Shown here: one piece after another, positions 1,232 through 56,765 of the stretch
Numbering within the stretch: position 1 is the first letter of the stretch
How the letters are laid out: the number at the start of each line of letters is the position of its first letter
From: a virus
Lineage: Duplodnaviria; Caudoviricetes
Length of the DNA: 62,660 bases
Reading direction: 5' to 3' (one strand)
IMG/VR virus record: IMGVR_UViG_3300001918_000027
Location: 1-62,660 of that record
Notes under the pieces: generated by a model
The model's input: the letters and a program-made list of their open reading frames with translations, nothing else
The model's database searches: none
Told to the model about the DNA's origin: nothing
Made by a program: the position numbers and the translations under genes

Positions 1232-2632
1232 TCATATAAACGCCCCGATGGTCCAAGGTACCGTTTGCTCTTTAGTTACAACACTTGGAGGTGTTGATGC
1301 ATCGCCCCAATTAGCAGACAACATACCCAAACTATTTACTAAAGTAGCTCCAGAACCTATGCCAGGGCTACCGGATTGCAACCTCAGATCTGTAGGTACA
1401 GTTACAAAAAGAGGGTTGCCAGCAATTATATTTGTGTTGCTAAATGTACCTCCGTTTTGATTGATATTCACCGTTGTATTTCCGAATGTATTGCAATGGC
1501 TAAAAGTTACTATGCCACTTGCTCCATTTGGATTTACACACAAATTGAGTAATGAGAAAATCGTATTTCTAACATTTATTCTACCTTCTGCTTGAATTCC
1601 TCTGCCTACATTTGAGTTCCCAATGAATGTACAATTATTAATTGTTGATGTGCCAGTACCTGTGGTTCTAACAGAATAAACATTTGTTGAGCCCATGTGC
1701 CTAAATGTACAGTAATCCAAGTTAAATACTCCATTGTTGCTATTCTGTATTTTGACTGTCAGATTCATCTCGAAGTAGCAGCGTTGTATCTGTACTTTTG
1801 AAATATCAGTTGCAAAAGTTCCGATAAAACTGTTATTCAAATAACTACAATCAGATACTACAATGCTTCCTATGCTTGATATTCTTGTTTCCCCAGAAAT
1901 CATTACACAATTATTTAGCTTAGTAGCTACTGCGCTATTAGCTATAACTTGTGACCTTAAGAAACAGCGGTTTACAGTAAAATCCGATGAATCATCGGCC
2001 TTTACATCAATTACATTATTCAAGAAATTACAATCGTTGATCGTGCAAACACCAGTGCTGATTGCATTAACGCCTTGGTCATTATTTTGAAAGGTGCAAT
2101 TATTTGCTATAACTACGGTTGCAGTATCGTGCAGGCTTATGCCGTCATCGAATCCATTTTGGAAGGTGCAATTATTGTATGTAACTTGGCAATAAGTGCC
2201 TTGGTTTTGAACAGTTTGATTGGTGCTTGTATCAAAAATGCAACCATCATACACAATGCTAGATACAGTTTGGTTCATAGCGCATTCAGATAGTCCATTA
2301 CGCATTGTAAGTCCAACTACTGTAACATTGTTTCGATTAATTACATTCAGGCAACGCCTTAATGATTGCGCATTTATTGTACCTGCTTGAGCAGGATGGT
2401 TTCCCACAATTTGTAGTCCATCTTGAGTTACATCTAGTAGTTGTAAGTGCTCTCCACACACAGCCAGCTTTGCGCCTTGGCTGACTACCAATGCCTGATT
2501 TACAGCAGCAAACCCGCTCCAAGCGTTGGCATAGCTTGTGCCATCGCCTGTGCCGTAGGTGGTACCCGAAGGACGAACAAAGAAGAATCTTTCGGCCAAA
2601 GAATCGGAAATGAGTTTTTTACGATATGACAT
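1232..2632 (-). CDS. Right-handed parallel beta-helix protein (pectin-lyase-like; possible tailspike/depolymerase)
   Basis: Repeated (N/D)CxF.NN rungs, GDGTSYANAW N-terminal motif, DLRLQSGSPGIGSG C-terminal motif. Confidence 0.7.
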   Translation of the reverse strand: MSYRKKLISDSLAERFFFVRPSGTTYGTGDGTSYANAWSGFAAVNQALVVSQGAKLAVCGEHLQLLDVTQDGLQIVGNHPAQAGTINAQSLRRCLNVINRNNVTVVGLTMRNGLSECAMNQTVSSIVYDGCIFDTSTNQTVQNQGTYCQVTYNNCTFQNGFDDGISLHDTATVVIANNCTFQNNDQGVNAISTGVCTINDCNFLNNVIDVKADDSSDFTVNRCFLRSQVIANSAVATKLNNCVMISGETRISSIGSIVVSDCSYLNNSFIGTFATDISKVQIQRCYFEMNLTVKIQNSNNGVFNLDYCTFRHMGSTNVYSVRTTGTGTSTINNCTFIGNSNVGRGIQAEGRINVRNTIFSLLNLCVNPNGASGIVTFSHCNTFGNTTVNINQNGGTFSNTNIIAGNPLFVTVPTDLRLQSGSPGIGSGATLVNSLGMLSANWGDASTPPSVVTKEQTVPWTIGAFI

Positions 2633-2636
2633 TTTA

Positions 2637-3107
2637 TTACGATTCTTGTGTTATCCAATATTCAATTCTTGTAGGAGAACAGTATTCGGCATAAATTATA
2701 TTTAATTCATTATTCGCATATTCGACCGTTCCCAGCTTAACCCAATTCGTGGGCTCCACAAAAGTCAATCCTGTGTGGTATATTTTTTGAACTATCCCAA
2801 TTTTGGCATTAGTAAAATCTGTACTAATTGCTCCAGTTGCCGGTGTGCTAGGTGAATTATAAATTTTAGCAGAATCAAATGAAATTACTTCCCCTTGAAT
2901 TTGTTCGGTTTCAGGAATGGTACCTGGCTCTCCCTTAAGGCTATCAAGCCATTCCTCCTTAGTGCCTACAAACCCATTTTCAACTGCAATATCATAAGCA
3001 CTTTTTGAAACCGATTCGGCTATTGATTTGAGCCACTCCTCTTCGGTACCCTCAAACCCATTACTAACAGCTATGTTATAATTCCACCTGTACTTTATAA
3101 TATTCAT
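2637..3107 (-). CDS. Phage tail-fibre-associated protein
   Basis: Two copies of the (S)AYDIAVENGF.GT.EEWL.S motif common in fibre/collagen-like phage proteins. Confidence 0.6.
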   Translation of the reverse strand: MNIIKYRWNYNIAVSNGFEGTEEEWLKSIAESVSKSAYDIAVENGFVGTKEEWLDSLKGEPGTIPETEQIQGEVISFDSAKIYNSPSTPATGAISTDFTNAKIGIVQKIYHTGLTFVEPTNWVKLGTVEYANNELNIIYAEYCSPTRIEYWITQES

Positions 3108-3111
3108 AAAT

Positions 3112-3777
3112 TTAAATTTTTTCAGTTAAAAATCTGCTACTTACCCAGCCCACTATTTTTGTGTCACCTACCTGTACATAATGCCAGCCATTTGCATTGC
3201 CTAAAACCTGTACGACTGTGCCCCTTGCCAAAGCGGGTGCCACGGTTTTGAATTCAGTACCGGCACCTTCTCTTATATTTACCACGGCTGTTGTTTGCAG
3301 GTACGGTTTAGAAGCCTTACTCCTAAACCCGACTTCCTGAAGCCATTGTTTTACCGAAAACGAAGGGCAGGCCTTTAACCACTCAGAAGGCTCGATGACG
3401 CCGTTGCGGTTACGATCAGGAGAAAAATCGCGGTGGCCCTGGATGATGGCATTAGGGTATAAGTCATGCGCTTCTTCAACGAGCTCAAGCAAAGCCTTTC
3501 TTTGCTCAGGTGTTCGGGTATCATGTATTTGCCCATTGGCCAAAACGCCACCGGTATAGGCTATGTGGACGCATTGCCGATTAAATCCCTCTACTCCATT
3601 AGTTATGGAAGCCCACTGAGCTAAGACATGCTTATTGCCATTTGCGGAAACAAGCCTGTGATAGCCTGGATGAGTCCAACGCATAACCCTTCGCCAATGC
3701 TCCCTGATGGAAGCCACGCTTTGGCTCTTGGGGCCACCGGTGCAATGAATCACGATGAAGTTAACCTGCCTTGCCAT
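3112..3777 (-). CDS. Endolysin: N-acetylmuramoyl-L-alanine amidase (T7 lysozyme-like) with C-terminal SH3b domain
   Basis: IVIHCT, GYH, GHRDFSPD, KACPSF Zn-amidase motifs; VNIREGAGT...GWVSSRFL SH3b. Confidence 0.92.
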   Translation of the reverse strand: MARQVNFIVIHCTGGPKSQSVASIREHWRRVMRWTHPGYHRLVSANGNKHVLAQWASITNGVEGFNRQCVHIAYTGGVLANGQIHDTRTPEQRKALLELVEEAHDLYPNAIIQGHRDFSPDRNRNGVIEPSEWLKACPSFSVKQWLQEVGFRSKASKPYLQTTAVVNIREGAGTEFKTVAPALARGTVVQVLGNANGWHYVQVGDTKIVGWVSSRFLTEKI

Positions 3778-4225
3778 TTTTAAAACCTAGTTTTAATTGA
3801 GGTAAAAACAAACCCAGTACCAAGCCCAGGGCAGCAACACCGATGAGGTGCCAAAAAGAAAAGCCCTCCACACTTTCTTGCTTATCTTTTTCCTTAAGCA
3901 TTTCGGCAATGGCCACAATGGCTTGCCTGGCTGCGCTGTCTACAGTATTGCTCTGCTTACTTTCGGCCTTACTGCCTCGTTCATAAATTCGCTCAACCGG
4001 AAAGTTGAAAACGTTTGTATCTCCAGGTATTACAACCGGCTTAAACCTTTCAATGAGGCGCTCAAAATCTAAGCTACTGTTTTGCGAAACATTTGTCTTC
4101 CGAACCCCAATGCTGTCGACCTGCTGCAGTCCCTGCTTTTCACTTTCTGACTTCTTTACATCTTTGGACAAGCTGCAAGAAATCAGGAGTAATAGCAGAA
4201 TAAATAATTTACAATTTCGGAGCAT
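3761..4225 (-). CDS. Putative unimolecular spanin
   Basis: N-terminal lipobox LLISC plus C-terminal hydrophobic segment; lies between holin and endolysin. Confidence 0.7.
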   Translation of the reverse strand: MLRNCKLFILLLLLISCSLSKDVKKSESEKQGLQQVDSIGVRKTNVSQNSSLDFERLIERFKPVVIPGDTNVFNFPVERIYERGSKAESKQSNTVDSAARQAIVAIAEMLKEKDKQESVEGFSFWHLIGVAALGLVLGLFLPQLKLGFKNGKAG

Positions 4226-4640
4226 AGCCTTTGAGTTTTAAAATGAGTACATTATGCAATGGCTTCACCAAATATTTTACAACATCATTACTGGGGTGTG
4301 CCTCTATAATGTTTTCCAAAATACTTTTGAACTCGATATACATCGACATCAATAAGATCACATTTAGTAAATTATCCAAGGCTGTGTTAACTATGCCTGT
4401 ATTAGGTACGCCGGGCTTTGCAACATTGGCTATTACGAAAACCGCACTCAAAAAGGAGAAATACATGGTCCCCTTATTAATGGTCATCCTGAAGCCGTTG
4501 CTGCTGGTAGCAATCCGTTTCTTACTTGATTTATGTACACCGGTAATGAGGTCGATAACCATGAGGAAAAATAGCCCAAGTACAAGCCGGCCGTCGGGAT
4601 AAATAATGTTCTGAATTAAACTATACAAATACTCTTTCAT
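4209..4640 (-). CDS. Phage holin (holin_4-like)
   Basis: Three hydrophobic segments, DLITG..K and E..SI.EN motifs. Confidence 0.85.
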   Translation of the reverse strand: MKEYLYSLIQNIIYPDGRLVLGLFFLMVIDLITGVHKSSKKRIATSSNGFRMTINKGTMYFSFLSAVFVIANVAKPGVPNTGIVNTALDNLLNVILLMSMYIEFKSILENIIEAHPSNDVVKYLVKPLHNVLILKLKGYAPKL

Positions 4641-4685
4641 TGTAAAGATTTAAAAAAAGTGAATTTTCTGACTAAGAATTAATCA

Positions 4686-6305
4686 TCAATACCTATACTC
4701 CACTTCTCCATATTTTATTGGCTGCCCCGCATTTTCATTATCATTATTCCATCCTAAGATACTATTTAGGTAACGGTCAACCCAAGCAAAATAGTAAGGA
4801 ACTCTATTTTTAGGCAACTTTTTTAAGTCGTAAAAATTTGTTGTAACGTAACTTTCGGGGTAATTATTTATTGGGCTCATAGGGTTGCTGCTACCTACTT
4901 TAAGATGTGCAATTGAGGCATTAACCCCGGATTTTAAATCTAAATGATTTACTTCCATTACGTGAAAAGGCAATACACCCAGCTTACTAAAGGTAGGGTT
5001 ATAAAACCATGTATTTGCGTTTCCTGTAGGTTTTACAAAAGAAAAATTGCATCGGTAAACTATAGTACTATCATCTATCGAAGAGCTATTGTTATTGTCA
5101 TAACAACCTAGCATATAAATGCTAGTGTCTAAAACTGCAAATCTTATGTTTAAACTACCTAGAGAATTGTAATTAAATAAACCGTCTTGCCAAAAAGCAG
5201 TATCTGTGCCGGAATGCCTTTTATTAAAACTTACATACTCTTTTCCAGATGCTTGTTGAGACACTAAAGCAGTAATAGAGTAAAAACCAGAAGCATTATC
5301 ACCAAGGTTTCCTAAGTAAAAAGATTCCAAACTCCCTGAATAAAATCGTTTCTGTAAATCTATGACAGCGGAAGAACGAAATTCCTCTAATAAAGCACCT
5401 GTAGCAGAGGCAATGGAAATCATATTAATTTTAGAAAAAACATCTCTTGTAGATGTAGTACGTATTGTGTTTGAGCTACCTTGTGTTGTTGCGGAATCCC
5501 CGCAATACATGAAATACCCTAAGTATTCATTTATTTGCCCAAGTATATAAACATCAGAAAATTTAGTATTCTCCCTGACAGGAACTTCGGGAGAAGCTAC
5601 AAAATCTAAACTAGAATTATTGATGTAAAACATGACATACCTAGCATACCATGATCTAACATCATCAACATCAACTGCATAATTAAACAAAACACCATTT
5701 CCGACTTTATACACATCATTCATAGGTATTTTATCAGAAAGAATAGCGGTTCTCAAATTATCGGCATCAATTACAGTATTATAGTCCAAAGTATATTGCC
5801 ACCCATTGGAATAGTAAGTTGGTGGAAAGATAAAATACCCTCTTTGGGTTTGATTACTGATAAAAATAGAATGTAGTGGGGTCTGAGTAAAATAATCTGC
5901 CGAGCCAGAATTTATAGATAAATTGTAACGATAGGGAGGTTCATCCCAATTCATAAAATAAGTAATGCCGTACCTTAAAGTATCAACAGGCTTAAAAAAA
6001 GAAGTGGTTTTTAAGTTATTGGAACCTAATTGATTAGGGACATTCGTAGTAGATTGAGCTGCATTAACCCTTACCCAATTTGTATTATTAAAATTTCTTA
6101 CCCACACACCACTATCTGCCCCGCTGTGCACAAGGATTAAATTACCTGGTCTGCTACCTGCAGCTGTTGCATTACTCAGGCTCGAATAACGAGGTATTTG
6201 ATTGACTGTTACGGTGTTAAGCCTATCGATTTGAACAAACTGTGTGCTTGCAATAGATGCAAGAAATAAAGCCGTAAATAGTGTGAAAATCTTTCTAATA
6301 TTCAT
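4686..6305 (-). CDS. Hypothetical AT-rich protein with Sec-type signal peptide
   Basis: MNIRKIFTLFTALFLASIAS-TQ N-terminus; ATGA-coupled to upstream gene. Confidence 0.6.
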   Translation of the reverse strand: MNIRKIFTLFTALFLASIASTQFVQIDRLNTVTVNQIPRYSSLSNATAAGSRPGNLILVHSGADSGVWVRNFNNTNWVRVNAAQSTTNVPNQLGSNNLKTTSFFKPVDTLRYGITYFMNWDEPPYRYNLSINSGSADYFTQTPLHSIFISNQTQRGYFIFPPTYYSNGWQYTLDYNTVIDADNLRTAILSDKIPMNDVYKVGNGVLFNYAVDVDDVRSWYARYVMFYINNSSLDFVASPEVPVRENTKFSDVYILGQINEYLGYFMYCGDSATTQGSSNTIRTTSTRDVFSKINMISIASATGALLEEFRSSAVIDLQKRFYSGSLESFYLGNLGDNASGFYSITALVSQQASGKEYVSFNKRHSGTDTAFWQDGLFNYNSLGSLNIRFAVLDTSIYMLGCYDNNNSSSIDDSTIVYRCNFSFVKPTGNANTWFYNPTFSKLGVLPFHVMEVNHLDLKSGVNASIAHLKVGSSNPMSPINNYPESYVTTNFYDLKKLPKNRVPYYFAWVDRYLNSILGWNNDNENAGQPIKYGEVEYRY

Positions 6306-6778
6306 TTGTAAAAAATTTTAAAACCTAGATTTGAAATTATTCCAGTTACATTAATTGTAGTTGCCTCGGGATAGTACCTCGTAAACATTAAATACCTGAC
6401 ATCATCAATATTCCAATCAGTAATTAAGCCCTGAAATGTGACCGTCATTGCGGTTCCCTGGGTAATGGCTATGGCTTCAATAACTGTGTTTGCCGGTATG
6501 GTTATGGTACCATTTGCAGTAAGCAAAAAATCACGCTGGCCACTGAGTTGATAACCTGTTGAGGTCTGATGATTTTCATTGAATTCATAGGTTCTGAGGA
6601 AGCCGTTTTCCTTAACCCTGAATTGCAGTCCCTCGCACCTATACGCTGCCGGTATGGCGGCAAGAGCTGCTGCCACACTTGCATAAGGCACGCTGCGGCC
6701 CGCCTCCAGCTTACCGGCCCTTAAGTCGGCATACCTGGGGGTATTAAAACCAAAACCATCATTTACCTCTATTGCCAT
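6302..6778 (-). CDS. Putative virion accessory/fibre-associated protein
   Basis: Position in late operon; D.R...A.AAIPAAYR..GL motif. Confidence 0.5.
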   Translation of the reverse strand: MAIEVNDGFGFNTPRYADLRAGKLEAGRSVPYASVAAALAAIPAAYRCEGLQFRVKENGFLRTYEFNENHQTSTGYQLSGQRDFLLTANGTITIPANTVIEAIAITQGTAMTVTFQGLITDWNIDDVRYLMFTRYYPEATTINVTGIISNLGFKIFYK

Positions 6779-6788
6779 ATACTCCTCC

Positions 6789-7484
6789 TTAGCTTACCCT
6801 GAATTCAATTACTGTTTGTGTTTGCTGCGTGGCAAATGTGCTCATGTACACATTGTAGGTAATGCCACTTTGATTTACAGTACCACGGTACCGAAAAGCC
6901 TCGCTATCATTAGTAAGGCTTATGTTGCCCTGATTAATTACAGAGCCAAACCATTTAGTCTTTAATGGCTGCGCAATGGGCTCAAGCATGTAAAGCCATT
7001 TGGGCTGATTATTGGCCCGATAGTCGGCTACAACTGTGGCACCACTTGCAAAGCTGCCATTGCCCTGTGCACTACCAATGAGGGAAGATCCAACACTGTT
7101 GTCATCAGCCCAGCCCCAATAGGCGGTAAATGCCGGTGGCGCTGCCGTCGTTGCGCTGTCCGGTGTCCATGGGCTATCGGTGGCACCTGCAGCCACGCCC
7201 TTGTACCGGGCATAATAAAGTGTGCCGGGGTTTAGGCCTGTAACCTGAAATGAAAGCAGCGGGCCACTATAGGCCAACGTAGGCGATGTAAACCCGGGAT
7301 TGGTTGATACCTCGAGCACGTAAGAACTCGCGCCAGGAATGGCGGCCCAGCCCCAGGTAATCGCATTACCCGTGGTTGCGGTTTCCGCAAGGCTGGCACC
7401 GGCAGGCAATTGCGGTACAGAGGGAAATTCCTCGGGCCCGCATACACAATATTTTCCAAAATGAGCTTCGTGATTAGTTGACAT
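6789..7484 (-). CDS. Fibronectin type III domain virion protein
   Basis: W...GASSYVLEVS...VTGLNPGTLYYAR FN3 signature. Confidence 0.75.
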   Translation of the reverse strand: MSTNHEAHFGKYCVCGPEEFPSVPQLPAGASLAETATTGNAITWGWAAIPGASSYVLEVSTNPGFTSPTLAYSGPLLSFQVTGLNPGTLYYARYKGVAAGATDSPWTPDSATTAAPPAFTAYWGWADDNSVGSSLIGSAQGNGSFASGATVVADYRANNQPKWLYMLEPIAQPLKTKWFGSVINQGNISLTNDSEAFRYRGTVNQSGITYNVYMSTFATQQTQTVIEFRVS

Positions 7485-7487
7485 CGG

Positions 7488-7748
7488 TTACCATTTACTA
7501 AGTGGACAATTCTCAGCAGCTACAATTGCTTTTTGATAACAAGGACAGCTGCAGAGCTTACAATAGATTTGGGTTTCGTAATGACCTTGGCCATTGATTA
7601 CCTCCAGGGCTTTATGACTTTTACTTTCCGGGCAGGATTTACATTTTTCCAGTCGAAGATCAGCCATTTTTTTCTCAGCCATTGAAGTTGGCAACCAACC
7701 CAAGCGCTTACCCCAGCCAATGAAAATATGATTCAGTTTTTTCAACAT
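7488..7748 (-). CDS. Small Cys-rich phage protein
   Basis: RL..C..CP...C..CSC..K......CP..KW pattern. Confidence 0.65.
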   Translation of the reverse strand: MLKKLNHIFIGWGKRLGWLPTSMAEKKMADLRLEKCKSCPESKSHKALEVINGQGHYETQIYCKLCSCPCYQKAIVAAENCPLSKW

Positions 7749-8410
7749 CCGCAGCCCTCCTTTTCATCATCGTCATATATACCTAAAACAAAATCGGTTT
7801 TTCTTTTATAGGCCACGCCCTTGGAATCGCAATCACATTCTTTGTCATAAAGTGGGTAATCCGCTTTACGCTTGCAGATCCAACGATGCATTGCTTCAAT
7901 CAGGGGGTCGATTCTGTCCTGCATCTTTTTATCCATTGCCCAACGCACGGCTTTGAGCTCAGGGGTTACAACGTTTGAGCTTGTCATTACACCGGCCGTA
8001 GGGCTAGTATGTACGACGCCCTCGGCACCGAATTGAACAAAGCCTTCAGGCATTGCCAAAAGCATGACGCACTCCGCCGTGAGCTTCCATAGATGCATTT
8101 TCCAAAGCAAAAGATTTGCGGCACTGAGGCCTGTCATCGTATTGGCAATATCGCCAACTTGAAAAACCGGGTTGTTGCCTGCGGCCTCCTGTATTTGGTC
8201 AATATTGGCTTCTGTTACGTCAACATTTTTTTGCTCAAGAAGGCTTTCGTAAAACTCATAACCCAGGGCTTGTGCAACGAATCGTTCCTCGGCAACAATT
8301 ATGCTTTGCTCAATCGAACGAGTGTCGAAATCATGCTTTGTACTGGCATGGAAACAGACCTCAGGGGCTGTAATCAAAACCGGCCGCATTAAGTTGTTGA
8401 TGTTATACAT
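7742..8410 (-). CDS. Putative head-tail adaptor/connector
   Basis: Immediately downstream of portal; start taken at ATG 8410. Confidence 0.55.
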   Translation of the reverse strand: MYNINNLMRPVLITAPEVCFHASTKHDFDTRSIEQSIIVAEERFVAQALGYEFYESLLEQKNVDVTEANIDQIQEAAGNNPVFQVGDIANTMTGLSAANLLLWKMHLWKLTAECVMLLAMPEGFVQFGAEGVVHTSPTAGVMTSSNVVTPELKAVRWAMDKKMQDRIDPLIEAMHRWICKRKADYPLYDKECDCDSKGVAYKRKTDFVLGIYDDDEKEGCGC

Positions 8411-9794
8411 CCGGACCTCCTTCTTTGCTTTGCTGGCTGGCTTTTGCCGCACTCATGTAAACACCTTCTTTGCTGGGATCAGTTGGTAAGCCCTTAGCCT
8501 CTCGTACTTCGTTTACCTGAACCGCTGGCGTGATATCAACATCGGTTAAGCCGCTGATATCAATGCTGTTTTTAATACCGAGTTCGTATTTATCAAAGCC
8601 CAGGCCGGTCCATTTCTGACACTCGTAAAAAATGTCATTCCAAACATTTTGCATGACGTCCTCCTGGGCAGGCCTGATTACGGTGTTCAACTTCAGCTCA
8701 ATAATCTTTGTAACAAAGCCCGAACCCTTACCCAAGGTGCTGGCATTGACTAAACCGGCAAGCACGGCATCCCATTCATTAGCCAGGATGATTTTTTGCA
8801 TCCATTTGTCATCGGCCTCTATGAAACTGCCATCCTTTTGTGTATCGAAGGAATGAAAGCTGCTGCTGTCTATGCCTTCTTCACTGGCTACAACAGCAAC
8901 ACGGCCTCGTTTACCATCACCGGTATGGGTGTTGATGATTTGCTTTGCAATACGATTGGCTTCGGTTTGGCCTACCTGCCCCTTTAAGGCCAGCATACCA
9001 CCGATTACCATGTTGTTGTCAAAGTTGTCAAGGTCATAGCGAGCACCCTTGTATTCCAGTATTTGGTAAATCATACTGGCAACAGCGGAGGGTAAGCCGT
9101 AATGATCGAAGCCCGCTACGGGATTGCTGTACCAAATAATGGTGCGCTCAACATCGCCATCACGTAGCCAGTTGCTTTTCTCCTTATTGCCTGCGCGATA
9201 AATTGGAATTGGCTTAGCCTTAGCAAGTTGCTCACTGGTTGCAATCCCTTGCCTGCGAAATAACTTGCTGGAAATCGCCTCTGTTACATCGCCGTCCTCG
9301 TTTTCACTGCAGAGTCTCCACTCCAGGAAATTATGAACATAGACATAAAAGTATTTCTTACCACCAACTTTAAATCGAACTAATTCAATAGGCACATTAC
9401 CCCAGGTAAAAAAGGACTCAAATATTTTTTTATTCAAGCCCAAAGCCTTTTCACTCTTGCGGTTCATTTTTTTGAACCAGTCGACGATATCGACATCAAG
9501 CTCTCTGCCTTTGATATCGGCGAATCCCATCCCACTGCAGTAATCCTTTTTTGTAATGATACAGGCATTGTGAGTAGTGGATGCAAGCCGGGCCTCAAGT
9601 AATTGCTTGGCATAGTCATCGTCGGGGAAAAGGAAGGGTAAATACCGGTGGCCGCTAATGGTGGAATAACTCAAAGCATTTTCAAAAGGAACCGGGTTGC
9701 GGGCATCGATCTGCGCCACATTGGAAACACTATTTTTTTGGTGCTTCTGATTCGGATGATTCCTTTTGTTTTGTCTTGCCTTGGAGTTATTCAT
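8403..9794 (-). CDS. Portal protein
   Basis: 463 aa; S.TH.ACI..K, YGLP, NF.N.M, NEVRE..GLP portal motifs. Confidence 0.85.
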   Translation of the reverse strand: MNNSKARQNKRNHPNQKHQKNSVSNVAQIDARNPVPFENALSYSTISGHRYLPFLFPDDDYAKQLLEARLASTTHNACIITKKDYCSGMGFADIKGRELDVDIVDWFKKMNRKSEKALGLNKKIFESFFTWGNVPIELVRFKVGGKKYFYVYVHNFLEWRLCSENEDGDVTEAISSKLFRRQGIATSEQLAKAKPIPIYRAGNKEKSNWLRDGDVERTIIWYSNPVAGFDHYGLPSAVASMIYQILEYKGARYDLDNFDNNMVIGGMLALKGQVGQTEANRIAKQIINTHTGDGKRGRVAVVASEEGIDSSSFHSFDTQKDGSFIEADDKWMQKIILANEWDAVLAGLVNASTLGKGSGFVTKIIELKLNTVIRPAQEDVMQNVWNDIFYECQKWTGLGFDKYELGIKNSIDISGLTDVDITPAVQVNEVREAKGLPTDPSKEGVYMSAAKASQQSKEGGPDV

Positions 9795-9811
9795 TGCCGG
9801 GATGGATATAC

Positions 9812-10048
9812 TTACTTACTTTTTTGCTCTTGCCGCCTTTTCTGAATCTGGCCGTCTACTTTTTCCTTTACCAGGGTATCGGCATCGGGCAGATCGCCCT
9901 CAAACAGTTTAAGCAACGAGGCATCGCCACTCTGCTGTGCGATGATTGCGAGTTCGTCGATATCAGTACGCTCGCCCAAAGGCAAGGCGCTGCCATTGAA
10001 ACCAATGACAACGCCTCTGTACTCACTCCTTATTTTGGCTTTCGCCAT
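9812..10048 (-). CDS. Small hypothetical phage protein
   Basis: ORF from MAKAKIR in late operon. Confidence 0.55.
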   Translation of the reverse strand: MAKAKIRSEYRGVVIGFNGSALPLGERTDIDELAIIAQQSGDASLLKLFEGDLPDADTLVKEKVDGQIQKRRQEQKSK

Positions 10049-10082
10049 AGCTATAAAAATTATGAGTTTGGAAAAAAAATGA

Positions 10083-10667
10083 TTACTCAGACATGGCCTC
10101 AATAGCTGCCCAGCCACCGGTGAATTCATAAAGGGGCCTGCTGTAATCGCCGGTAAACAATACGTTCATACCGTTGAATTCTTCGAACAGCTTGCCGCTG
10201 GTACCATCGAAGTCACCGAGCTTAATTTTGAATTTCGGAATAGTGAGGCTGTTTACGAACTTCTCTCCCATTACGAAGATGCGGCCACTGTTAAGCCTTA
10301 CAACTATGCCGATACCGCAGCATATAGAAGCCGCATCTGCAGATTGCAAGAAAGTGGTAAGCGCATGACTGAGGTCGGGGAGCTGCGTGGTGATTGCATG
10401 GGTGTATTTAACACTGCTGCCGACGCTCTGCCTGCTGGGGGTGTACTCGGCTTCGTTTTCATTGAAGCCCAGCATGAAGATTTTGGCACCACCTTCAGCT
10501 GTGGCCCCATCCCTGCGGGATAACGCCGTATAGGGCTGGGCTACACCTGCTATGGGAGCCGCCTGCGTCCAGTTGAAATCGTTGGGATCGAATATGCCAA
10601 CATCGGATACCCCACCACTAACGGGGGCGCAGATGCGGTTATATTTTTTTAATACTACACAGACCAT
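10083..10667 (-). CDS. Putative major tail (tube) protein
   Basis: 194 aa, beta-rich, directly after capsid; C....GGV, G.SGK...E.NG motifs. Confidence 0.6.
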   Translation of the reverse strand: MVCVVLKKYNRICAPVSGGVSDVGIFDPNDFNWTQAAPIAGVAQPYTALSRRDGATAEGGAKIFMLGFNENEAEYTPSRQSVGSSVKYTHAITTQLPDLSHALTTFLQSADAASICCGIGIVVRLNSGRIFVMGEKFVNSLTIPKFKIKLGDFDGTSGKLFEEFNGMNVLFTGDYSRPLYEFTGGWAAIEAMSE

Positions 10668-19084: not shown

Positions 19085-20122
19085 ATGTTTAAAATCTTTA
19101 AGGCACAAAAAAAGGCCTTTCTTCCGCTGTACAAAGCCATTGCGGACAAAATCAGTAAGGGTGAGGTACTTACCCCGGATGGCAGCAAGTTCACTAAAAA
19201 CACGATTTATAACTACAAAAGCGGAAGCTACCGCTTCAGTCAGTACGAAGCCGAAAACGGAATAATTTACCTCGAAGACATCAATCCCCAATGGGCTGAA
19301 CAGTTCTCGGTGTTTTTGATGAAAAAGGGTTATTGCAAAAACACTATTGCTGTAACGCTGGCAAGGTTAAAAGCCGTTTTGAGGAGGCTTTATGACCAGG
19401 GTGTATCGAAGTACAACGGCAATGGCATAAGGGCTAGTTCTGAACTAACAACCGCTGTTTATAGCAGTATTGAAGACATACGGCAGCTGATGGAGTATGA
19501 TTTTTCCAATACGCCGGGATTGGAAAGAGTAAGGGATATCTATGTTCTGCAATGCTTTATAGGGCTTAGATATAGTGATTTGGCTTCCATTCTGGAGGAG
19601 CCCAAGCGTTTCCTTAGGGACATCGGAGGCAATTTGTTTTTTGATATCAAAACCCAGAAAACCGGGGAGGTGGTTGTAATTCCTGTGGCTCAAGTAGTAA
19701 AAAAGATCCTGGAGAAATATGGCTATACCTTTGGCAAATGCTTTAGCTATCAGTACTACAATAAGTCCATAAAGGAAATCGGCAGGCTTGCTGGCCTCAA
19801 TCAGGAAATTTCCTGCAGCAGGACGGAAGGTGGCACCCGGGTAGATACAGTTAGGCTAAAATGGGCGATGATGAGCAGCCACACCGCAAGGCGAACCTTT
19901 GCCACTAATGCTTTTTTAGCCGGGCTGCCGGAAAAAAGCATTATGGTCATTACCGGCCATAAAACACATTTGGCATTCAATAAATACATCCGGTGCTCCA
20001 GCCTCGACAACGCCATAAAATTGGCAAATCATGACTTTTTCCACCTTGATTTACCCGTAATAATTACCTTGCCGCCACCAAATCAACCGAAATTAACAGA
20101 TGAAAACAGCGACGACAGATGA
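19085..20122 (+). CDS. Tyrosine recombinase/integrase (Bacteroidota type, SAM-like plus catalytic domain)
   Basis: GLRYSD, TQKT, SSHTARRTFAT, TGH, YIR catalytic residues. Confidence 0.92.
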   Translation: MFKIFKAQKKAFLPLYKAIADKISKGEVLTPDGSKFTKNTIYNYKSGSYRFSQYEAENGIIYLEDINPQWAEQFSVFLMKKGYCKNTIAVTLARLKAVLRRLYDQGVSKYNGNGIRASSELTTAVYSSIEDIRQLMEYDFSNTPGLERVRDIYVLQCFIGLRYSDLASILEEPKRFLRDIGGNLFFDIKTQKTGEVVVIPVAQVVKKILEKYGYTFGKCFSYQYYNKSIKEIGRLAGLNQEISCSRTEGGTRVDTVRLKWAMMSSHTARRTFATNAFLAGLPEKSIMVITGHKTHLAFNKYIRCSSLDNAIKLANHDFFHLDLPVIITLPPPNQPKLTDENSDDR

Positions 20123-43547: not shown

Positions 43548-43850
43548 CTATCTCTCCTCGGGTGGAATTCGGGAAAAAGCTTTATCAACCATGGCTTGAG
43601 CCACAAGGGAGCGGACATCATCAGGAGGGAAGCAGTGGAAAAGGCGGCACAGCTCCAGGCACTCGGTTACGATTTCATCACAGGTTTTGTACGCCGGGAA
43701 AAGGAATTGAACGCCATAGTGTATTAGTTCTTTGCTGAGCTGGCGCTTGTTTCCGGGCAGGTTTAGCAAATCATCAGTTGCGGAATGCAGGAAGGTATAA
43801 AGCTCTGCTTTTGCTTTGATTCGGTCGCGGTGTGCTGTGTGGTTTGCCAT
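43548..43850 (-). CDS. Hypothetical protein
   Basis: 100-aa ORF. Confidence 0.5.
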   Translation of the reverse strand: MANHTAHRDRIKAKAELYTFLHSATDDLLNLPGNKRQLSKELIHYGVQFLFPAYKTCDEIVTECLELCRLFHCFPPDDVRSLVAQAMVDKAFSRIPPEER

Positions 43851-43927
43851 TGGGTAAATGTAACAAAAATTTTAAAAAAAAAACACCAAATAGCCTGATT
43901 TCTTTGTATCTTGTTAAAAATTTCGAA

Positions 43928-44656
43928 ATGAAAGCAGGGGTTTACAAAATTTCAAACTTTTTAAATAAAAGGTGCTATATCGGGTCTAGCATTAATCTAA
44001 AGGCACGACTTGCAGAGCACAAAAACGACCTACGGAAAGGCAATCATCATTCTTTATTTATGCAACGTGATTTTGACGCTTGTGGTGAAGCTTTTTTCGA
44101 TTTTGATGTACTCGAAACTATCAATGACATAAAAGATTTAATTAAAAGAGAACAATATTATATTGACAAAATCAATCCAGAATACAACACTTTGAAATTT
44201 GCAGGCAGTTCATTAGGGGCAAAAGCGTCACCTGAGGCCATAGAAAAAAATAGGCTAAGAAACACCGGCTTTGGTAACGGAAATTGTAAGATAAAAGGTG
44301 AGGTATTTGAAGCCATGAAGCACTACCGACAAACACATACTCAAAAACAAACTGCTCAAAAGTTTGGAGTAAACATATCGACAATTCAAAGAATCGAAAA
44401 GAGGGAGGGCCTTTCATTTTCTACTAAAATTTATTCTAAGGAAGGTAAACAGATTCTTTCTAAAAACGCTAAAACAAGGAAAAGTGCTGTAGCAAAAAAA
44501 GTCGAATACATTTCCCCGGATGGGGTTGTAGTAGTTTTTTGCTCAATAACTCAAGCAGCAAAAGCTCTTAATATTTCAAAATGTACTGTTTTTTCCTTGT
44601 GTAGAAATATTTGTAAGACTAGAAAATATGATATTAGATATGCAGAATTAGCATAA
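43928..44656 (+). CDS. Free-standing GIY-YIG homing endonuclease with HTH/NUMOD1-like tail
   Basis: GVY...YIGSS.NL..R..H, REQYYID, PEYN..AGSSLG; F.SI..AAK.L. Confidence 0.88.
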   Translation: MKAGVYKISNFLNKRCYIGSSINLKARLAEHKNDLRKGNHHSLFMQRDFDACGEAFFDFDVLETINDIKDLIKREQYYIDKINPEYNTLKFAGSSLGAKASPEAIEKNRLRNTGFGNGNCKIKGEVFEAMKHYRQTHTQKQTAQKFGVNISTIQRIEKREGLSFSTKIYSKEGKQILSKNAKTRKSAVAKKVEYISPDGVVVVFCSITQAAKALNISKCTVFSLCRNICKTRKYDIRYAELA

Positions 44657-45194
44657 TGGCATCACGCATATCCTGGTTTATTCTGCCTTTCCAGAGGTTT
44701 AGCCGTTTGAATTCTTCTGCTGAAACTTTGGCCTTACTTGGTTTAACTTCATGATATTCAATGCGTTTCCTTTGTAAATAGCTGCAAATCAGTTTACCTA
44801 CCTGATGGCAGGCTCCGACATTCTTTGCGATCTTTTCCCGGCTGCCAGCTCCTCGGGCTTGGTGCCAATTGCTTTTGTCTATAAGCCAACCGGCGTCGAT
44901 GTAAACCCTCAGGTCTGCGTCTTTGCTGAGGTGGTTGATGAGGTTGAGGACGTCGTAAAAATGCAAGGCCTTGACATCCAATATCTTAGCCGTGCCCATT
45001 TCTTTTATGGCGACTCCGCAGCGGTCAACGTCGGGATCGATTCCCAGGAGGAAAACTTTTTTTTCATTTCCAGTCGATTCGTTGGCCGGGATTTCGGGCA
45101 AATGATTTACTTGCTGGACCGGGACGGTTGCTTTAGCTCTTATGCCCTTGGTCTCTAGGCGCTGAATGTCCTGTAGTGTGAATCTCTTACTCAT
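44634..45194 (-). CDS. RuvC-like Holliday junction resolvase
   Basis: LLGIDPD...GVA, D.RDA motifs. Confidence 0.7.
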   Translation of the reverse strand: MSKRFTLQDIQRLETKGIRAKATVPVQQVNHLPEIPANESTGNEKKVFLLGIDPDVDRCGVAIKEMGTAKILDVKALHFYDVLNLINHLSKDADLRVYIDAGWLIDKSNWHQARGAGSREKIAKNVGACHQVGKLICSYLQRKRIEYHEVKPSKAKVSAEEFKRLNLWKGRINQDMRDAIMLILHI

Positions 45195-45231
45195 GTGTGT
45201 AGTTCAGTTGCGTAAATGCAGGCGTTATGCG

Positions 45232-45657
45232 TCAGGCTAAAAGACCATTCCATTTCAACATATCACGGACAACAGACCAGTCAACAAACGGACGTTCCGA
45301 AAATTCTTTGTCATATTTTAACGGACAACCTAATGCAGCATCATCAATATACATTTGAGCATAAGCCTTTGGGCTTGTAGTCCAAGTGTGTTGAGTTGGA
45401 TTAGTTTGTATTCCATAAAGTGGTATTTCATTTTCTTTAAACCAATTAACAGCATCGCTTAAATAATTGCCACTTTCAAGGTGTAATTCGTTATCCTCAC
45501 CAGTAGGATTAACTATGTCGCTTCTCATTGTGAATAAGACCAATTGGTGTCCATTTTCAACCAATGCTTTTAGTACAGGAACGGCCTTTATATCCTTTCC
45601 TACTTTTGGAAATTCGTGAGTTACACACGTTCCATCGAAATCAATTGCTATTATCAT
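45232..45657 (-). CDS. HAD-superfamily phosphatase-like protein (BT0820-like)
   Basis: IAIDFDGT, LFTMR, K..A.MYIDD. Confidence 0.85.
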   Translation of the reverse strand: MIIAIDFDGTCVTHEFPKVGKDIKAVPVLKALVENGHQLVLFTMRSDIVNPTGEDNELHLESGNYLSDAVNWFKENEIPLYGIQTNPTQHTWTTSPKAYAQMYIDDAALGCPLKYDKEFSERPFVDWSVVRDMLKWNGLLA

Positions 45658-45694
45658 TTTTTAAAATTTTAATTCGTTAAACAAAAGCCCGAAC

Positions 45695-45825
45695 GCATAA
45701 CAAGGGTTTGTAGCAATAGGGGCAGAAGTGCAAGTTTTAAGCCGTTTACTTCTATTGGGCTGTGGTGGTGGTTTGAACAGTAGTGCTATAAATCCCCTAC
45801 TGCTACAAGCCCCGAACCGTTAGCG
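45695..45825 (+). repeat. attC-like recombination site 1 (131 bp)
   Basis: GCATAAC...GTTAGCG with arms GGGTTTGTAGCAATAGGGG / CCCCTACTGCTACAAGCCC. Confidence 0.8.
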
Positions 45826-46617
45826 GCAATACCGTGACACCCTATTAACGGCAATGTCGTAATATTCCTGCTCCATTTCTATCCCTATGAATTTTCTACC
45901 TGTTAACGCACAAGCGACACCAGTTGAGCCAGAACCCATGCAGTTATCCAAAACCGTTTCGCCTTCATTTGTATAGGTTTTGATTAAGTACGCCAGTAAT
46001 GCAACAGGTTTTTGAGTTGGGTGTAAACTGCTGTTTTGCGTATCGGTTGAAAACTCTTGAATGCTTCTTGGGTATCGCTCTGTGCTTTCATATGTGTAGT
46101 CATTATTCATATCGCCATAAACATCCGTTTGCAAGTGCTTTGCCCTAAAACTTTTCTTCTTTACATGCCCGGAGGTTTTTTGCGGGTTGTAAGTACATTG
46201 CTGCTTGTAAAAAACACTTATCACTTCATGGTTTCTCATTGGCTGTTTTTTGGCATTTAAGAAGCCTGTGCCTTTTATTTTGTCCCAAATCCAATCGTAT
46301 TTGAATAACTTAATGTTGCTCAATCGTAAGTAAGAACTAAAAGGCTCTGCACCAAAAAGAACTATTGCTCCATCATCTTTTATCACTCTTTCATACTGCG
46401 GCCAAAGTTCATCGAATGGTATAACGGCATCCCAGGCACATTGCGTTGTGCCATAGGGCAAATCACATAAAATCATATCAACCGACTTAGAAGAAATCTT
46501 GTCCATTTCTTGTATGCAGTCACCGTGATATAATGTACTGCCGCTAACAGTGCATTGCTGCAATGCTGGCTGACGTACATCACTCATCGGTATATTTTCA
46601 AATAAACTTTTCTGCAT
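45820..46617 (-). CDS. Site-specific DNA methyltransferase (N6A/N4C, beta class)
   Basis: LYHGDC, CDLPYG, HPTQKPV, LDNCMGSGSTG. Confidence 0.92.
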   Translation of the reverse strand: MQKSLFENIPMSDVRQPALQQCTVSGSTLYHGDCIQEMDKISSKSVDMILCDLPYGTTQCAWDAVIPFDELWPQYERVIKDDGAIVLFGAEPFSSYLRLSNIKLFKYDWIWDKIKGTGFLNAKKQPMRNHEVISVFYKQQCTYNPQKTSGHVKKKSFRAKHLQTDVYGDMNNDYTYESTERYPRSIQEFSTDTQNSSLHPTQKPVALLAYLIKTYTNEGETVLDNCMGSGSTGVACALTGRKFIGIEMEQEYYDIAVNRVSRYCR

Positions 46618-46674
46618 AGTTTGAACTTCGGTTTTTCAAATTCCAGCACTGACAGCAATGCTTTTACGTTAGTG
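46542..46674 (+). repeat. attC-like recombination site 2 (133 bp)
   Basis: CGCTAAC...GTTAGTG with arms GCATTGCTGCAATGCTGG / CCAGCACTGACAGCAATGC (one bulged base). Confidence 0.8.
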
Positions 46675-46899
46675 ACTATTGCCAACCTCAATCTCAGCCA
46701 CTATATCAAAACCGGTTTGGTGGCTGATGTTATAAATTCCCGATGAAGTCCACATACAAATAGCCCTTGTTACCTCTCCGCTATCGTCAGCAACAAAGCC
46801 CTTCCATACATACATTCTATAAATGAAGGAGAGGTCCTGTGTTATAGTCGCTACTTGGCCGCTCCGTGTCCTGTATTGTTTCCCAAGTTGTAATTCCAT
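46669..46899 (-). CDS. Hypothetical phage protein
   Basis: L..GK.YRTRSG..A.I...W...G......FDIV motif. Confidence 0.65.
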   Translation of the reverse strand: MELQLGKQYRTRSGQVATITQDLSFIYRMYVWKGFVADDSGEVTRAICMWTSSGIYNISHQTGFDIVAEIEVGNSH

Positions 46900-56380: not shown

Positions 56381-56522
56381 TGGTGATGATAAAAAGTCTT
56401 AAAATAGTGCTCTCGGGATTTTTTTTTGTCCGCGTAACTTCGATACCCGAGAGCACCCTTGTTCTAAAATCTTAAATGAAAGTTTGCTTTACTGCTTCAT
56501 AACTACCTCCCTTTTATTTTAG

Positions 56523-56595
56523 AGACCACAGAGGGATTCGAACCCCCGCTTTCCACGATCTGCAATCGCGTGCCTTACCGCTCAGCCATGTGGTC
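56523..56595 (-). tRNA. tRNA-Cys(GCA), CCA not encoded
   Basis: GACCACA/TGTGGTC acceptor stem, U73, CGCGA-TTGCAGA-TCGTG anticodon arm, GGTTCGAATCC T-arm. Confidence 0.9.
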
Positions 56596-56647
56596 ATGTA
56601 AGCAAGGGCAGCTTGTTGACAGTGTCCCCGGCGTCCCGGTCTTGTTG

Positions 56648-56684
56648 CTTATCTGCTTTGCACCCTTACTTATCTGCTTTGCAC
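56648..56684. repeat. 16-bp direct repeat between tRNAs
   Basis: CTTATCTGCTTTGCAC at 56648 and 56669. Confidence 0.8.
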
Positions 56685-56693
56685 TCTTGGTTG

Positions 56694-56765
56694 TTGCGGG
56701 AGATGGAATCGAACCACCGACTTCCGGGTAATGAGCCCGGCACGCTACCTCTGCGTCACCCCGCA
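56694..56765 (-). tRNA. tRNA-Met(CAT), initiator-type, CCA not encoded
   Basis: TGCGGGG/TCCCGCA acceptor, CCGGG-CTCATTA-CCCGG arm with three G:C pairs, GGTTCGATTCC. Confidence 0.9.

Follow-up and report, generated by a model that had tools for sequence, protein, structure and literature searches.

In integrons, attC sites follow the 7-mer consensus RYYYAAC / GTTRRRY, their R box measures 7 bp, and their extrahelical bases mark the recombined strand, which is the 'bottom' strand. Here we describe a hairpin, attC2, at the 5' end of a DNA methylase open reading frame (ORF) in a 62,660-nt viral sequence (Duplodnaviria; Caudoviricetes; IMG/VR record IMGVR_UViG_3300001918_000027, classed as a provirus), the whole of which is called the window below. 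The explanation that we favour, with a probability of roughly three in four, is that attC2 is a member of a family of attC-like recombination sites that fold as single strands and delimit mobile gene cassettes. The family occurs in phages of Bacteroidota and on at least one contig of a Chitinophagales metagenome-assembled genome (MAG). Integron-like cassettes are a known kind of element; what sets this variant apart is the reversed gene, the start codon in the loop of the site and the leader peptide written by the hairpin.

Qi et al. (2023) reported 3 integrons and 17 clusters of attC sites lacking an integron integrase (CALINs) in 10,705 phage genomes, with five methylases in phage cassettes, two of them in the CALIN of Polaribacter phage P12002L, whose attC was recombined by IntI1 (accessible text of PMC9892861); the string 'Flavobacteri' does not appear in the accessible main text of that article. 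The hairpin family described here shares with integron attC sites and phage CALINs an imperfect palindrome in which ..AAC and GTT.. boxes are conserved and an unpaired spacer leads to a second stem with a variable loop. As in attC cassettes, the end box is complementary to the first bases of its own cassette, in this family over 14 nt. As in phage CALINs, one strand folds better than the other, the sites form tandem arrays, some of them in virulent phages without an integrase, and the cargo is rich in orphan DNA methylases.

The family departs from attC in several respects. Its end stem is 14-15 bp long and has a fixed G:T pair, compared with the 7-bp R box, its spacer is strongly asymmetric (5-7 nt on one side and 1-3 nt on the other), and a conserved 1x1 mismatch and G:T pairs are found in place of regular extrahelical bases. 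Furthermore, the gene is reversed in the phage arrays, the site preceding it, and about half of the sites hold a start codon. In the window the 7-mers are CACTAAC/GTTAGCG and CGCTAAC/GTTATGC, each with one or two departures from the attC consensus, and the box ends read CTAACG/TGTTAG and CTAACG/TGTTAT. The identification of the hairpins as attC, made from the letters of the window alone by what we call the sequence-only reading, is borne out in the boxes, the second stem and the end complementarity, but not in the full 7-mer consensus, a window integrase or the end stem with its fixed G:T; we call the sites attC-like rather than proven attC.

Promoter-early stem-loops (PeSLs) of T4-type phages mediate modular shuffling and the formation of mini-circles (Arbiol et al. 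2010; Comeau et al. 2014; accessible text of PMC2839356 and PMC4122927). Like the present hairpins, they are short stem-loop elements that separate small accessory genes of plastic phage regions, where genes are gained, lost and replaced, and they are thought to make circles and to serve host adaptation. In the same accessible text PeSLs are conserved repeats that contain a sigma-70 promoter and a terminator and act by homologous recombination, whereas in the hairpin family the stems co-vary and the boxes alone are invariant. PeSLs are the closest functional analogue, probably with a different mechanism. A start or N-terminus supplied by cassette-boundary sequence is known from fused integron cassettes such as gcuF1/blaOXA-28 (reviewed by Fonseca and Vicente 2022; accessible text of PMC8876359), which are described there as sporadic fusions to a neighbouring cassette after loss of attC; here, in contrast, the start lies in the loop of the cassette's own intact site and is a regular design (38 of 73 cassettes).

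Among Baltic Flavobacterium phages 15 methylase genes vary, and the presence or absence of particular methylase genes, one gene being linked, tracks plating efficiency on another host (Nilsson et al. 2020; accessible text of PMC7077304); that text does not use the terms hairpin, stem-loop, palindrome or integrase. Flavobacterium methylase genes that track plating efficiency sit in cassette arrays, which offers a possible mechanism for this published phenotype (PMC7077304). Our literature search brought up no account of the hairpin family or of start codons placed by rule in attC loops, although the supplements of Qi et al. and Nilsson et al. could list such phages.

The methylase gene and its hairpin

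The ORF list places a 265-aa N6/N4 DNA methyltransferase at 45820..46617 (-). The protein, which starts MQKSLFENIPMSDVRQPALQQCTVSGSTLYHGDC, matches PF01555 (N6_N4_Mtase) over residues 46-257 with 108.7 bits against a gathering cut-off of 26.7 (5.4e-31) and contains the motifs GDC, DLPY and TQKP together with an FxGxG-type SGS; its relatives are abundant in phages. Upstream, the attC2 hairpin extends from box to box over 46671..46545 (-), so that the sequence-only reading, which had put it at 46542-46668, was right about its presence and not about its limits. On the minus strand the 5' box TAACG (46671-46667) is followed by a spacer of 5 nt, a 19-nt 5' arm (46661-46643) with a bulged T at 46652, a 73-nt loop (46642-46570), an 18-nt 3' arm (46569-46552) and, three bases further on, the 3' box GTTA (46548-46545, within TGTTA). 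The 18-pair stem is built by the inverted repeats I15 (46552-46560 / 46653-46661, 9/9) and I20.

Both in-frame ATGs of the methylase, at 46617 and 46587, lie in the hairpin loop, as the sequence-only reading had noticed, and an in-frame TGA stands 7 codons 5' of the first. The frame continues across the 3' arm and GTTAGCGGC, and the hairpin carries the start codon and the first 27 codons of the gene. From the hairpin to the conserved GDC motif the frame contains no ATG, GTG or TTG; a start that keeps the conserved core must therefore be inside the hairpin. The triplets GTT AGC GGC at 46548-46540 (minus strand) do encode V S G, and the site is read through as supposed, but the 'inverse core' named by the sequence-only reading corresponds to the 3' box of the coding strand. 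The 14-nt start-of-cassette box GTTAGCGGCAGTAC (46535..46548, -) encodes V S G S T.

At the other end of the gene, the stop codon TAA (45822-45820) lies within the TAAC box of a second hairpin, attC1. The stop region GCCGCTAAC is the exact reverse complement of GTTAGCGGC, which agrees with the earlier assignment of the stop to a core-site box. The 14-nt end-of-cassette box GTATTGCCGCTAAC (45819..45832, -) encodes Y C R and the stop and likely holds the crossover point at TAAC|G. GTTAGCGGCAGTAC and GTATTGCCGCTAAC can pair at all 14 positions, 13 of them Watson-Crick and one G:T. Thus the ORF extends from within the hairpin loop up to the cassette's final bases, and complementary 14-nt boxes encode both ends of the protein (VSGST and YCR-stop), much as had been proposed.

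Folding energy by itself would leave room for a chance inverted repeat that overlaps an ordinary gene start. The minus strand of attC2 folds as DNA at -19 kcal/mol (z -2.75, 2 of 200 shuffles being equally good), the plus strand more weakly (z -2.01) and the attC1 region at z -0.83. As a test by itself folding energy was set aside as weak, and the scan for exact stems because chance long-range stems of 9 bp abound in the window. A scan of the 62.7 kb for TAAC..stem..GTTA found only the two hairpins attC1 and attC2, whose scores, 40 and 42 (not listed by site), exceed the 36 reached at most in 10 shuffles, and the two sites flank one gene.

An alignment of 31 hairpins of the family shows TAACG and TGTTA to be invariant in 31 of 31. 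RNAalifold gives 22 pairs for these sequences, 15 of them with compensatory changes; past the unpaired spacer the second stem is a 17-pair helix, and terminal loops measure some 18 to 90 nt. The covariation score is 0.597, compared with 0.142 after shuffling (0 of 500 shuffles as high), and a G:T pair is found at columns 30/123 in 30 of the 31. Cells are paired in 92.8% of cases, compared with 67.0% when shuffled and 38-46% when slid, the high paired fraction being partly a matter of construction, as the hairpins had been preselected by a scan that requires a stem. This construction does not account for the fixed wobble, the common register of the stems or the specificity of the model. Across the family the asymmetry lies in the conserved 1x1 mismatch and the fixed G:T pairs, and in attC2 there is one bulged T.

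A covariance model built from the 31 hairpins, R1, matches attC2 at 46540-46676 (-) with 85.5 bits (E ~1e-16; 8 bits on the plus strand) and attC1 at 45693-45827 (-) with 101.4 bits (E ~1e-19; 19 bits on the plus strand). It has no further match in the window, nor in 42-50 kb with filters off; the Rfam scan of the window, Rfam having no attC model, returned two tRNAs only. Outside the window, R1 gives 15 matches in the 38-kb Flavobacterium phage filifjonk9-1, all on one strand within 1940-10233, 19 in an 18-kb stretch (L168) of a 169-kb viral contig (G001), 14 and 12 on the phage-like MAG contigs L102 and L114, and one on L147; in the remaining 77 of 80 GTDB loci, whose related methylases are without the N-terminal extension (882 kb searched in all), there is none. 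Together with the scan, R1 places hairpins in 7 of 80 IMG/VR loci with relatives of the methylase (L004, L021, L029, L041, L058, L061 and L069) and none in the other 73. Single weak scan matches in L026 and L077 were not confirmed by R1 and were discarded.

In the Flavobacterium phage snork9-1, whose methylase is 53% identical, a hairpin stands in the same place with arms that differ in sequence and yet pair. Such compensatory changes at this level of protein identity, the E values of the model and the confinement of the sites to a few of the loci are decisive comparative evidence, which indicates that the hairpin pair did not arise by chance; the chance explanation is refuted by these data, and we give it practically no weight.

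Cassette ends and breakpoints

Within arrays, the 14 nt that end in TAAC before one hairpin are complementary to the 14 nt that start from GTTA after the preceding hairpin. In 71 consecutive pairs a mean of 13.1 of 14 positions is paired and 60 of the 71 reach at least 12, whereas random pairings of ends have a mean of 9.4 and reach at least 12 in 13% of cases. Position 11 of the end boxes is G:T in 63 of the 71 cassettes and never Watson-Crick. The paired ends stand 150-1600 nt of ORF apart.

The limits of homology fall at the same boxes. The 7 methylase loci (alignments A2 and A3) are homologous from the upstream TAACG as far as the downstream TAACG, and when L029, from an unrelated complete 34.5-kb phage with terminal repeats, is compared with 6.5 kb of the window, only 46671..45815 matches (94.8% over 858 nt). 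Among 45 pairs of similar hairpins, the flank is shared downstream only in 20, upstream only in 1, on both sides in 2 and on neither side in 22. The sharing of downstream flanks and the sharp ends of homology imply that the unit is the hairpin plus the following gene, cut at TAAC|G. Metagenome contigs from four public runs of four studies end or break at 45229, 45697/45698, 45818, 45830, 46667 and 46671 of the window: a 2084-nt contig that equals 45818-46680 with 3 differences stops at 45818, the end point of contig X1, and is unlike the window past 46680, contig X5 diverges at 45229, the match of one contig starts at 46667, and a 351-nt contig matches over 45698-45830 only, with unlike flanks on both sides. 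Loose contig ends recur at 45697/45698 in two runs, and short contigs stop at 46671. Joints between contigs whose short sides measure 20-55 nt at 88% likeness were left out of this evidence.

From these limits attC2 would be the methylase cassette's own site and not a neighbour's, the gene being reversed relative to the usual order of ORF then attC. That the hairpin bounds a mobile cassette, as the sequence-only reading had suggested, is upheld by the hairpin family, the end complementarity and the limits of homology alike. On the coding strand the cassette would read G and a spacer of 5-7 nt, a stem of ~17-20 pairs with a variable loop, a spacer of 1-3 nt, GTTAnnnnnnGnnn, the ORF and nnnTnnnnnnTAAC. 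In an excised or looped-out cassette the two 14-nt boxes would close a long stem beneath the hairpin, and exchange would take place at or next to TAAC|G. Read on the opposite strand, the order would be that of an integron cassette (start TTR.., ORF, attC, G), except that the gene is turned round, which makes the hairpin the 5' end of the gene's own cassette, and the coding strand of the phage cassettes may by analogy correspond to the integron 'bottom' strand. The system as a whole would be one of integron-like cassettes in which the gene points the opposite way from the usual attC arrangement.

Could the hairpins instead be regulatory elements of the early region, PeSL-like promoters and terminators or stem-loops that control translation, shuffled by homologous recombination with no site-specific recombinase? 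The phage sites stand between co-directional early genes, all on the coding strand, their loops are A-rich and often contain a start codon (38 of 73), and PeSLs are known for modular shuffling and mini-circles (accessible text of PMC2839356 and PMC4122927). Most array-bearing records are without a tyrosine recombinase, and what lies between the divergent arrays of L102 is not an integrase but a PD-(D/E)XK nuclease together with an HNH endonuclease. However, stems that co-vary around some 5 invariant bases per side are a poor substrate for homologous recombination, and a promoter or terminator would have no use for 14-nt end complementarity that includes a fixed G:T. In addition, neither a sigma-70-type promoter nor a stem-plus-T-run terminator was found in 45698-45822 or 46545-46671 by a scan that does not cover Bacteroidota-type promoters, the ORFs on the Chitinophagales contig lie on the strand opposite to the hairpin sense, and a tyrosine recombinase is found at the arrays of three records. 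We consider this alternative unlikely.

A purely RNA-level element, which presents the AUG in an open loop or stabilizes the transcript and shows cassette patterns as by-products of shared ancestry, has in its favour the scores of the coding strand over its complement (101 versus 19 and 85 versus 8 bits), three conserved G:T (G:U) pairs on the coding strand and the start codon in the loop. It does not account for the exact joining of unrelated flanks at the boxes, for the complementarity of ends across 150-1600 nt of ORF or for the sites of the Chitinophagales contig, which are antisense to the neighbouring genes. An RNA role may exist alongside recombination and leaves these three observations unexplained; as the whole explanation it is very improbable.

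The leader peptide encoded by the hairpin

The cassette geometry has a consequence for the protein. In versions with a long loop, the start codon would be in the loop and the ribosome would read on through the 3' arm and the GTTA box; by this read-through the methylase would gain a leader of ~27 residues set by DNA pairing and not by the enzyme. In every one of the 7 hairpin loci GDC is preceded by 22-32 residues, compared with 5-12 in 38 of the 41 hairpin-less loci that could be scored by regular expression (19-28 in the other 3; 32 further loci with motif variants or other arrangements were left unscored). A peptide shared with hairpin-less homologues, which would have spoken against a hairpin origin, is thus lacking. 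Compared with the family profiles, which start on the window methylase at residue 46 (Pfam), ~27 (PHROG) and ~26 (NCBIfam; about 26-28 for the latter two), the protein adds a leader of 25-27 residues. In an AlphaFold2 model from a 29-row alignment (mean predicted local distance difference test score 82.4) residues 1-25 score below 50 and the first strand is at 28-31; only 6 of the 29 rows carry the leader, which tells against the disorder prediction in that it accounts for part of the low confidence there. The leader is predicted to be disordered, and as it is also absent from hairpin-less homologues, the hairpin-encoded peptide looks like a passenger of the methylase; we infer that it is functionally neutral.

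Changes in the stem are visible in the peptide. The window and snork9-1 methylases have in common the leader pattern MQKSLFEN..V..P.L...VS.S, and four amino-acid replacements plus one silent change separate the leaders of the window and L004, whose proteins are 90% identical; among them, Q20R is the coding-side half of a compensatory change in the 3' arm. The first ATG is kept in 7 of 7 hairpin loci and the second in 5 of 7, which makes the ATG at 46617 the likelier start. Of 79 hairpins examined, 73 have a following ORF of at least 40 aa, with the first in-frame ATG inside the hairpin in 38 and after it in 35; by a crude motif test, 17 of the former cassettes and 5 of the latter encode methylases. 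Some cassettes have a longest ORF that starts within the end box (leaders MCRF..), and end boxes of the GTTATG type bring their own ATG (L061 3291-3389, L102 and others).

A peptide such as 'PALQQC.VSGS' had been suggested as a protein-level tag for such cassettes. The segment V-S-[GRC]-S comes from the end box and does recur, including on non-methylase ORFs (PQLNIGAVSGS, PQLNIPAVSCS); 'PALQQC', on the other hand, consists of stem-arm codons that co-vary with their partner and is replaced by PTLHKT or PAIAKP in relatives, so that the tag is a loose one. The recombination-site DNA here doubles as coding sequence, regularly and across the family, with stem pairing that dictates ~25 codons, and compensatory stem changes appear as amino-acid changes: a natural case of a constraint on DNA structure writing a peptide.

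Recombinases and the strength of the argument

A tyrosine recombinase is found near the arrays of three records. In the 169-kb contig with the 19-site array (G001) the last cassette ends with tgcacaTAAC|G; on the same strand, 19-47 nt past this last TAAC|G, begins a tyrosine recombinase of 298 aa, which scores 206 bits with NF040815 and 155 bits with TIGR02249 (cut-off 265). Its relatives, 76-79% identical, occur in three more viral contigs; that of L173, 76% identical to the G001 protein, is preceded by an array. In the other two, L170 and L172 (IMG/VR), the contig ends less than 100 nt upstream of the recombinase gene, and assemblies may break in hairpin arrays. The third record, L167, is a Chitinophagales MAG contig that carries ordinary bacterial genes; here a 377-aa recombinase lies 3.7 kb from three hairpin sites; it is 35% identical to the 298-aa protein and its best NCBIfam match is TIGR02249 (223 bits, cut-off 265). 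Both candidates differ from the integron integrase in leaving positions 182-238 of TIGR02249 unmatched. The ORFs between the L167 sites are on the strand opposite to the hairpin sense, which is the usual integron orientation. The best candidate for the exchange would be an Xer/IntI-like tyrosine recombinase that acts in trans, and we infer that its substrate is the folded coding strand.

The invariant TAAC at the boundary, the strand-specific element with a subterminal hairpin and the ends able to pair also recall a non-autonomous single-strand IS200/IS605 transposon (palindrome-associated transposable element, PATE), in which an HUH/Y1 enzyme cuts by a conserved tetranucleotide at the hairpin foot. 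The Y1 transposase (PF01797) is absent from 5 of 5 array-bearing records, in a search whose control was positive in 6 of 14 genomes, each unit has one hairpin and not one per end, and the sites form tandem arrays with a tyrosine recombinase at the array end. We regard such a transposon as highly unlikely, on a par with the purely RNA-level element.

Several observations weigh against the recombination-site explanation. The window contains no integron integrase or close relative and no TIGR02249 match; its sole tyrosine recombinase, at 19085..20122 (+), is generic and 25 kb away (phrog_1 5.4e-17; PF00589 20.6 bits, below the cut-off). Of 5 array-bearing records, one contains PF00589 and two of the other four are complete genomes, and the candidate recombinases may be Xer-like rather than IntI. 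By R1, phage P12002L was rejected as a carrier of this site family, with one weak scan match and none with the model. For the 22 of 45 similar hairpin pairs with unrelated flanks on both sides, a single crossover point is not an explanation; a second breakpoint at GTTA, conversion among hairpins or a process that makes cassettes could possibly lie behind them. A single crossover point likewise leaves unexplained that one hairpin leader can be fused to different proteins: two methylases of 31% identity share 15 residues that come from one hairpin (95% identity over 129 nt), and the L085 hairpins at 6558-6696 and 3082-3219, 91% identical, put the same 16-residue leader on ORFs of 142 and 92 aa with unrelated flanks. 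Finally, both the exchange and the protein start are predicted here from DNA sequence.

On the other side stand the anatomy of the site, its covariation, the end complementarity, the boundaries seen in comparisons and in metagenome contigs, and the co-occurrence of leader and hairpin, all of which are observed directly. An intI gene that adjoins an array and scores above the family cut-off was not found in the window, and the candidates elsewhere stay below that cut-off. The window, with two cassettes and no cognate recombinase, thus resembles a CALIN, having at least two close sites and no integron integrase, a class that applies on condition that the sites are taken as attC-like. Arrays of 15-19 sites, not highlighted in standard reports, are hereby added to the known phage CALINs together with a candidate cognate recombinase, which makes cassette exchange in phages experimentally approachable.

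A more far-reaching reading, which we put forward tentatively and with slightly more doubt than belief, is that of a distinct integron-like system of Bacteroidota and their phages that combines several features. An Xer/IntI-like tyrosine recombinase without the integron-integrase insert may act on the folded coding strand; the site may have a 15-bp end stem and a fixed G:T; the cassette may be a self-contained expression unit, whose hairpin loop presents the start codon and writes a leader onto the following ORF; virulent Flavobacterium phages may keep their whole accessory early region as arrays, above all of anti-restriction methylase sets; and these phages may change host range through cassette swaps. 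The origin of cassettes may be reflected in the recurrence of one hairpin on different ORFs, and if the system is indeed distinct, a hairpin with its leader on unrelated ORFs would be a trace of the making of new cassettes, a puzzle of integrons.

The second cassette, neighbouring genes and other arrays

The downstream hairpin attC1 (45698..45822, -; inverted repeat I2) has arms of 19-20 nt and a 71-nt loop, stands 723 nt from attC2 and belongs to the next cassette and not to that of the methylase. Its gene, which begins 41 nt past the hairpin, is a 141-aa ORF similar to phosphatases of the haloacid dehalogenase (HAD) type (45232..45657, -; NF046079 3e-19, phrog_1238 1.6e-30); no relative of this cassette was found in 11 loci searched. 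The junction GACGCATAAC and the G after it (45224..45233, -) are complementary at 9 of 10 positions to GTTATGCGTT after attC1, and as no hairpin follows, this junction is the end of an array of two cassettes, methylase and HAD-like. Upstream of attC2, the stop codon TAA of a 76-aa ORF (46669..46899, -) is the TAA of the 5' box; a partner box GTTAGTGAC for this flank was not found on the expected strand.

Adjoining the last TAAC|G junction is an ORF at 44634..45194 (-) with a match to a Holliday-junction-resolvase PHROG (phrog_1770, 2.9e-14). It was considered as a common recombinase and rejected, being absent with this query from 5 other array-bearing records. Just past this resolvase-like gene that closes the array, on the opposite strand, lies an ORF similar to GIY-YIG homing endonucleases (43832-44656, +; PF01541 2.4e-12) with helix-turn-helix and NUMOD-like domains, and genes for tRNA-Cys(GCA) and tRNA-Met(CAT) are found at 56522-56765 (-), in the phage region.

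In the virulent phage filifjonk9-1 (L085, MN812206), nearly the whole leftward early region (1940-10233) is a cassette array of 15 sites with five annotated methylases as cargo, and the 28 kb of replication and structural genes contain no site. The integron-like locus of L167 (116-8880) has cassettes that include a pair of RloB and AAA_21 as well as duplicated 299-aa proteins with a type IX secretion system (T9SS) sorting tail. L102 (1-20729), a GTDB contig labelled as a Nitrosotalea MAG, encodes a terminase and a VapE-like primase and has two divergent hairpin arrays (7 + 7 sites) around the PD-(D/E)XK nuclease and HNH endonuclease genes; it looks like a phage contig of the Bacteroidota type that was binned into an archaeal MAG.

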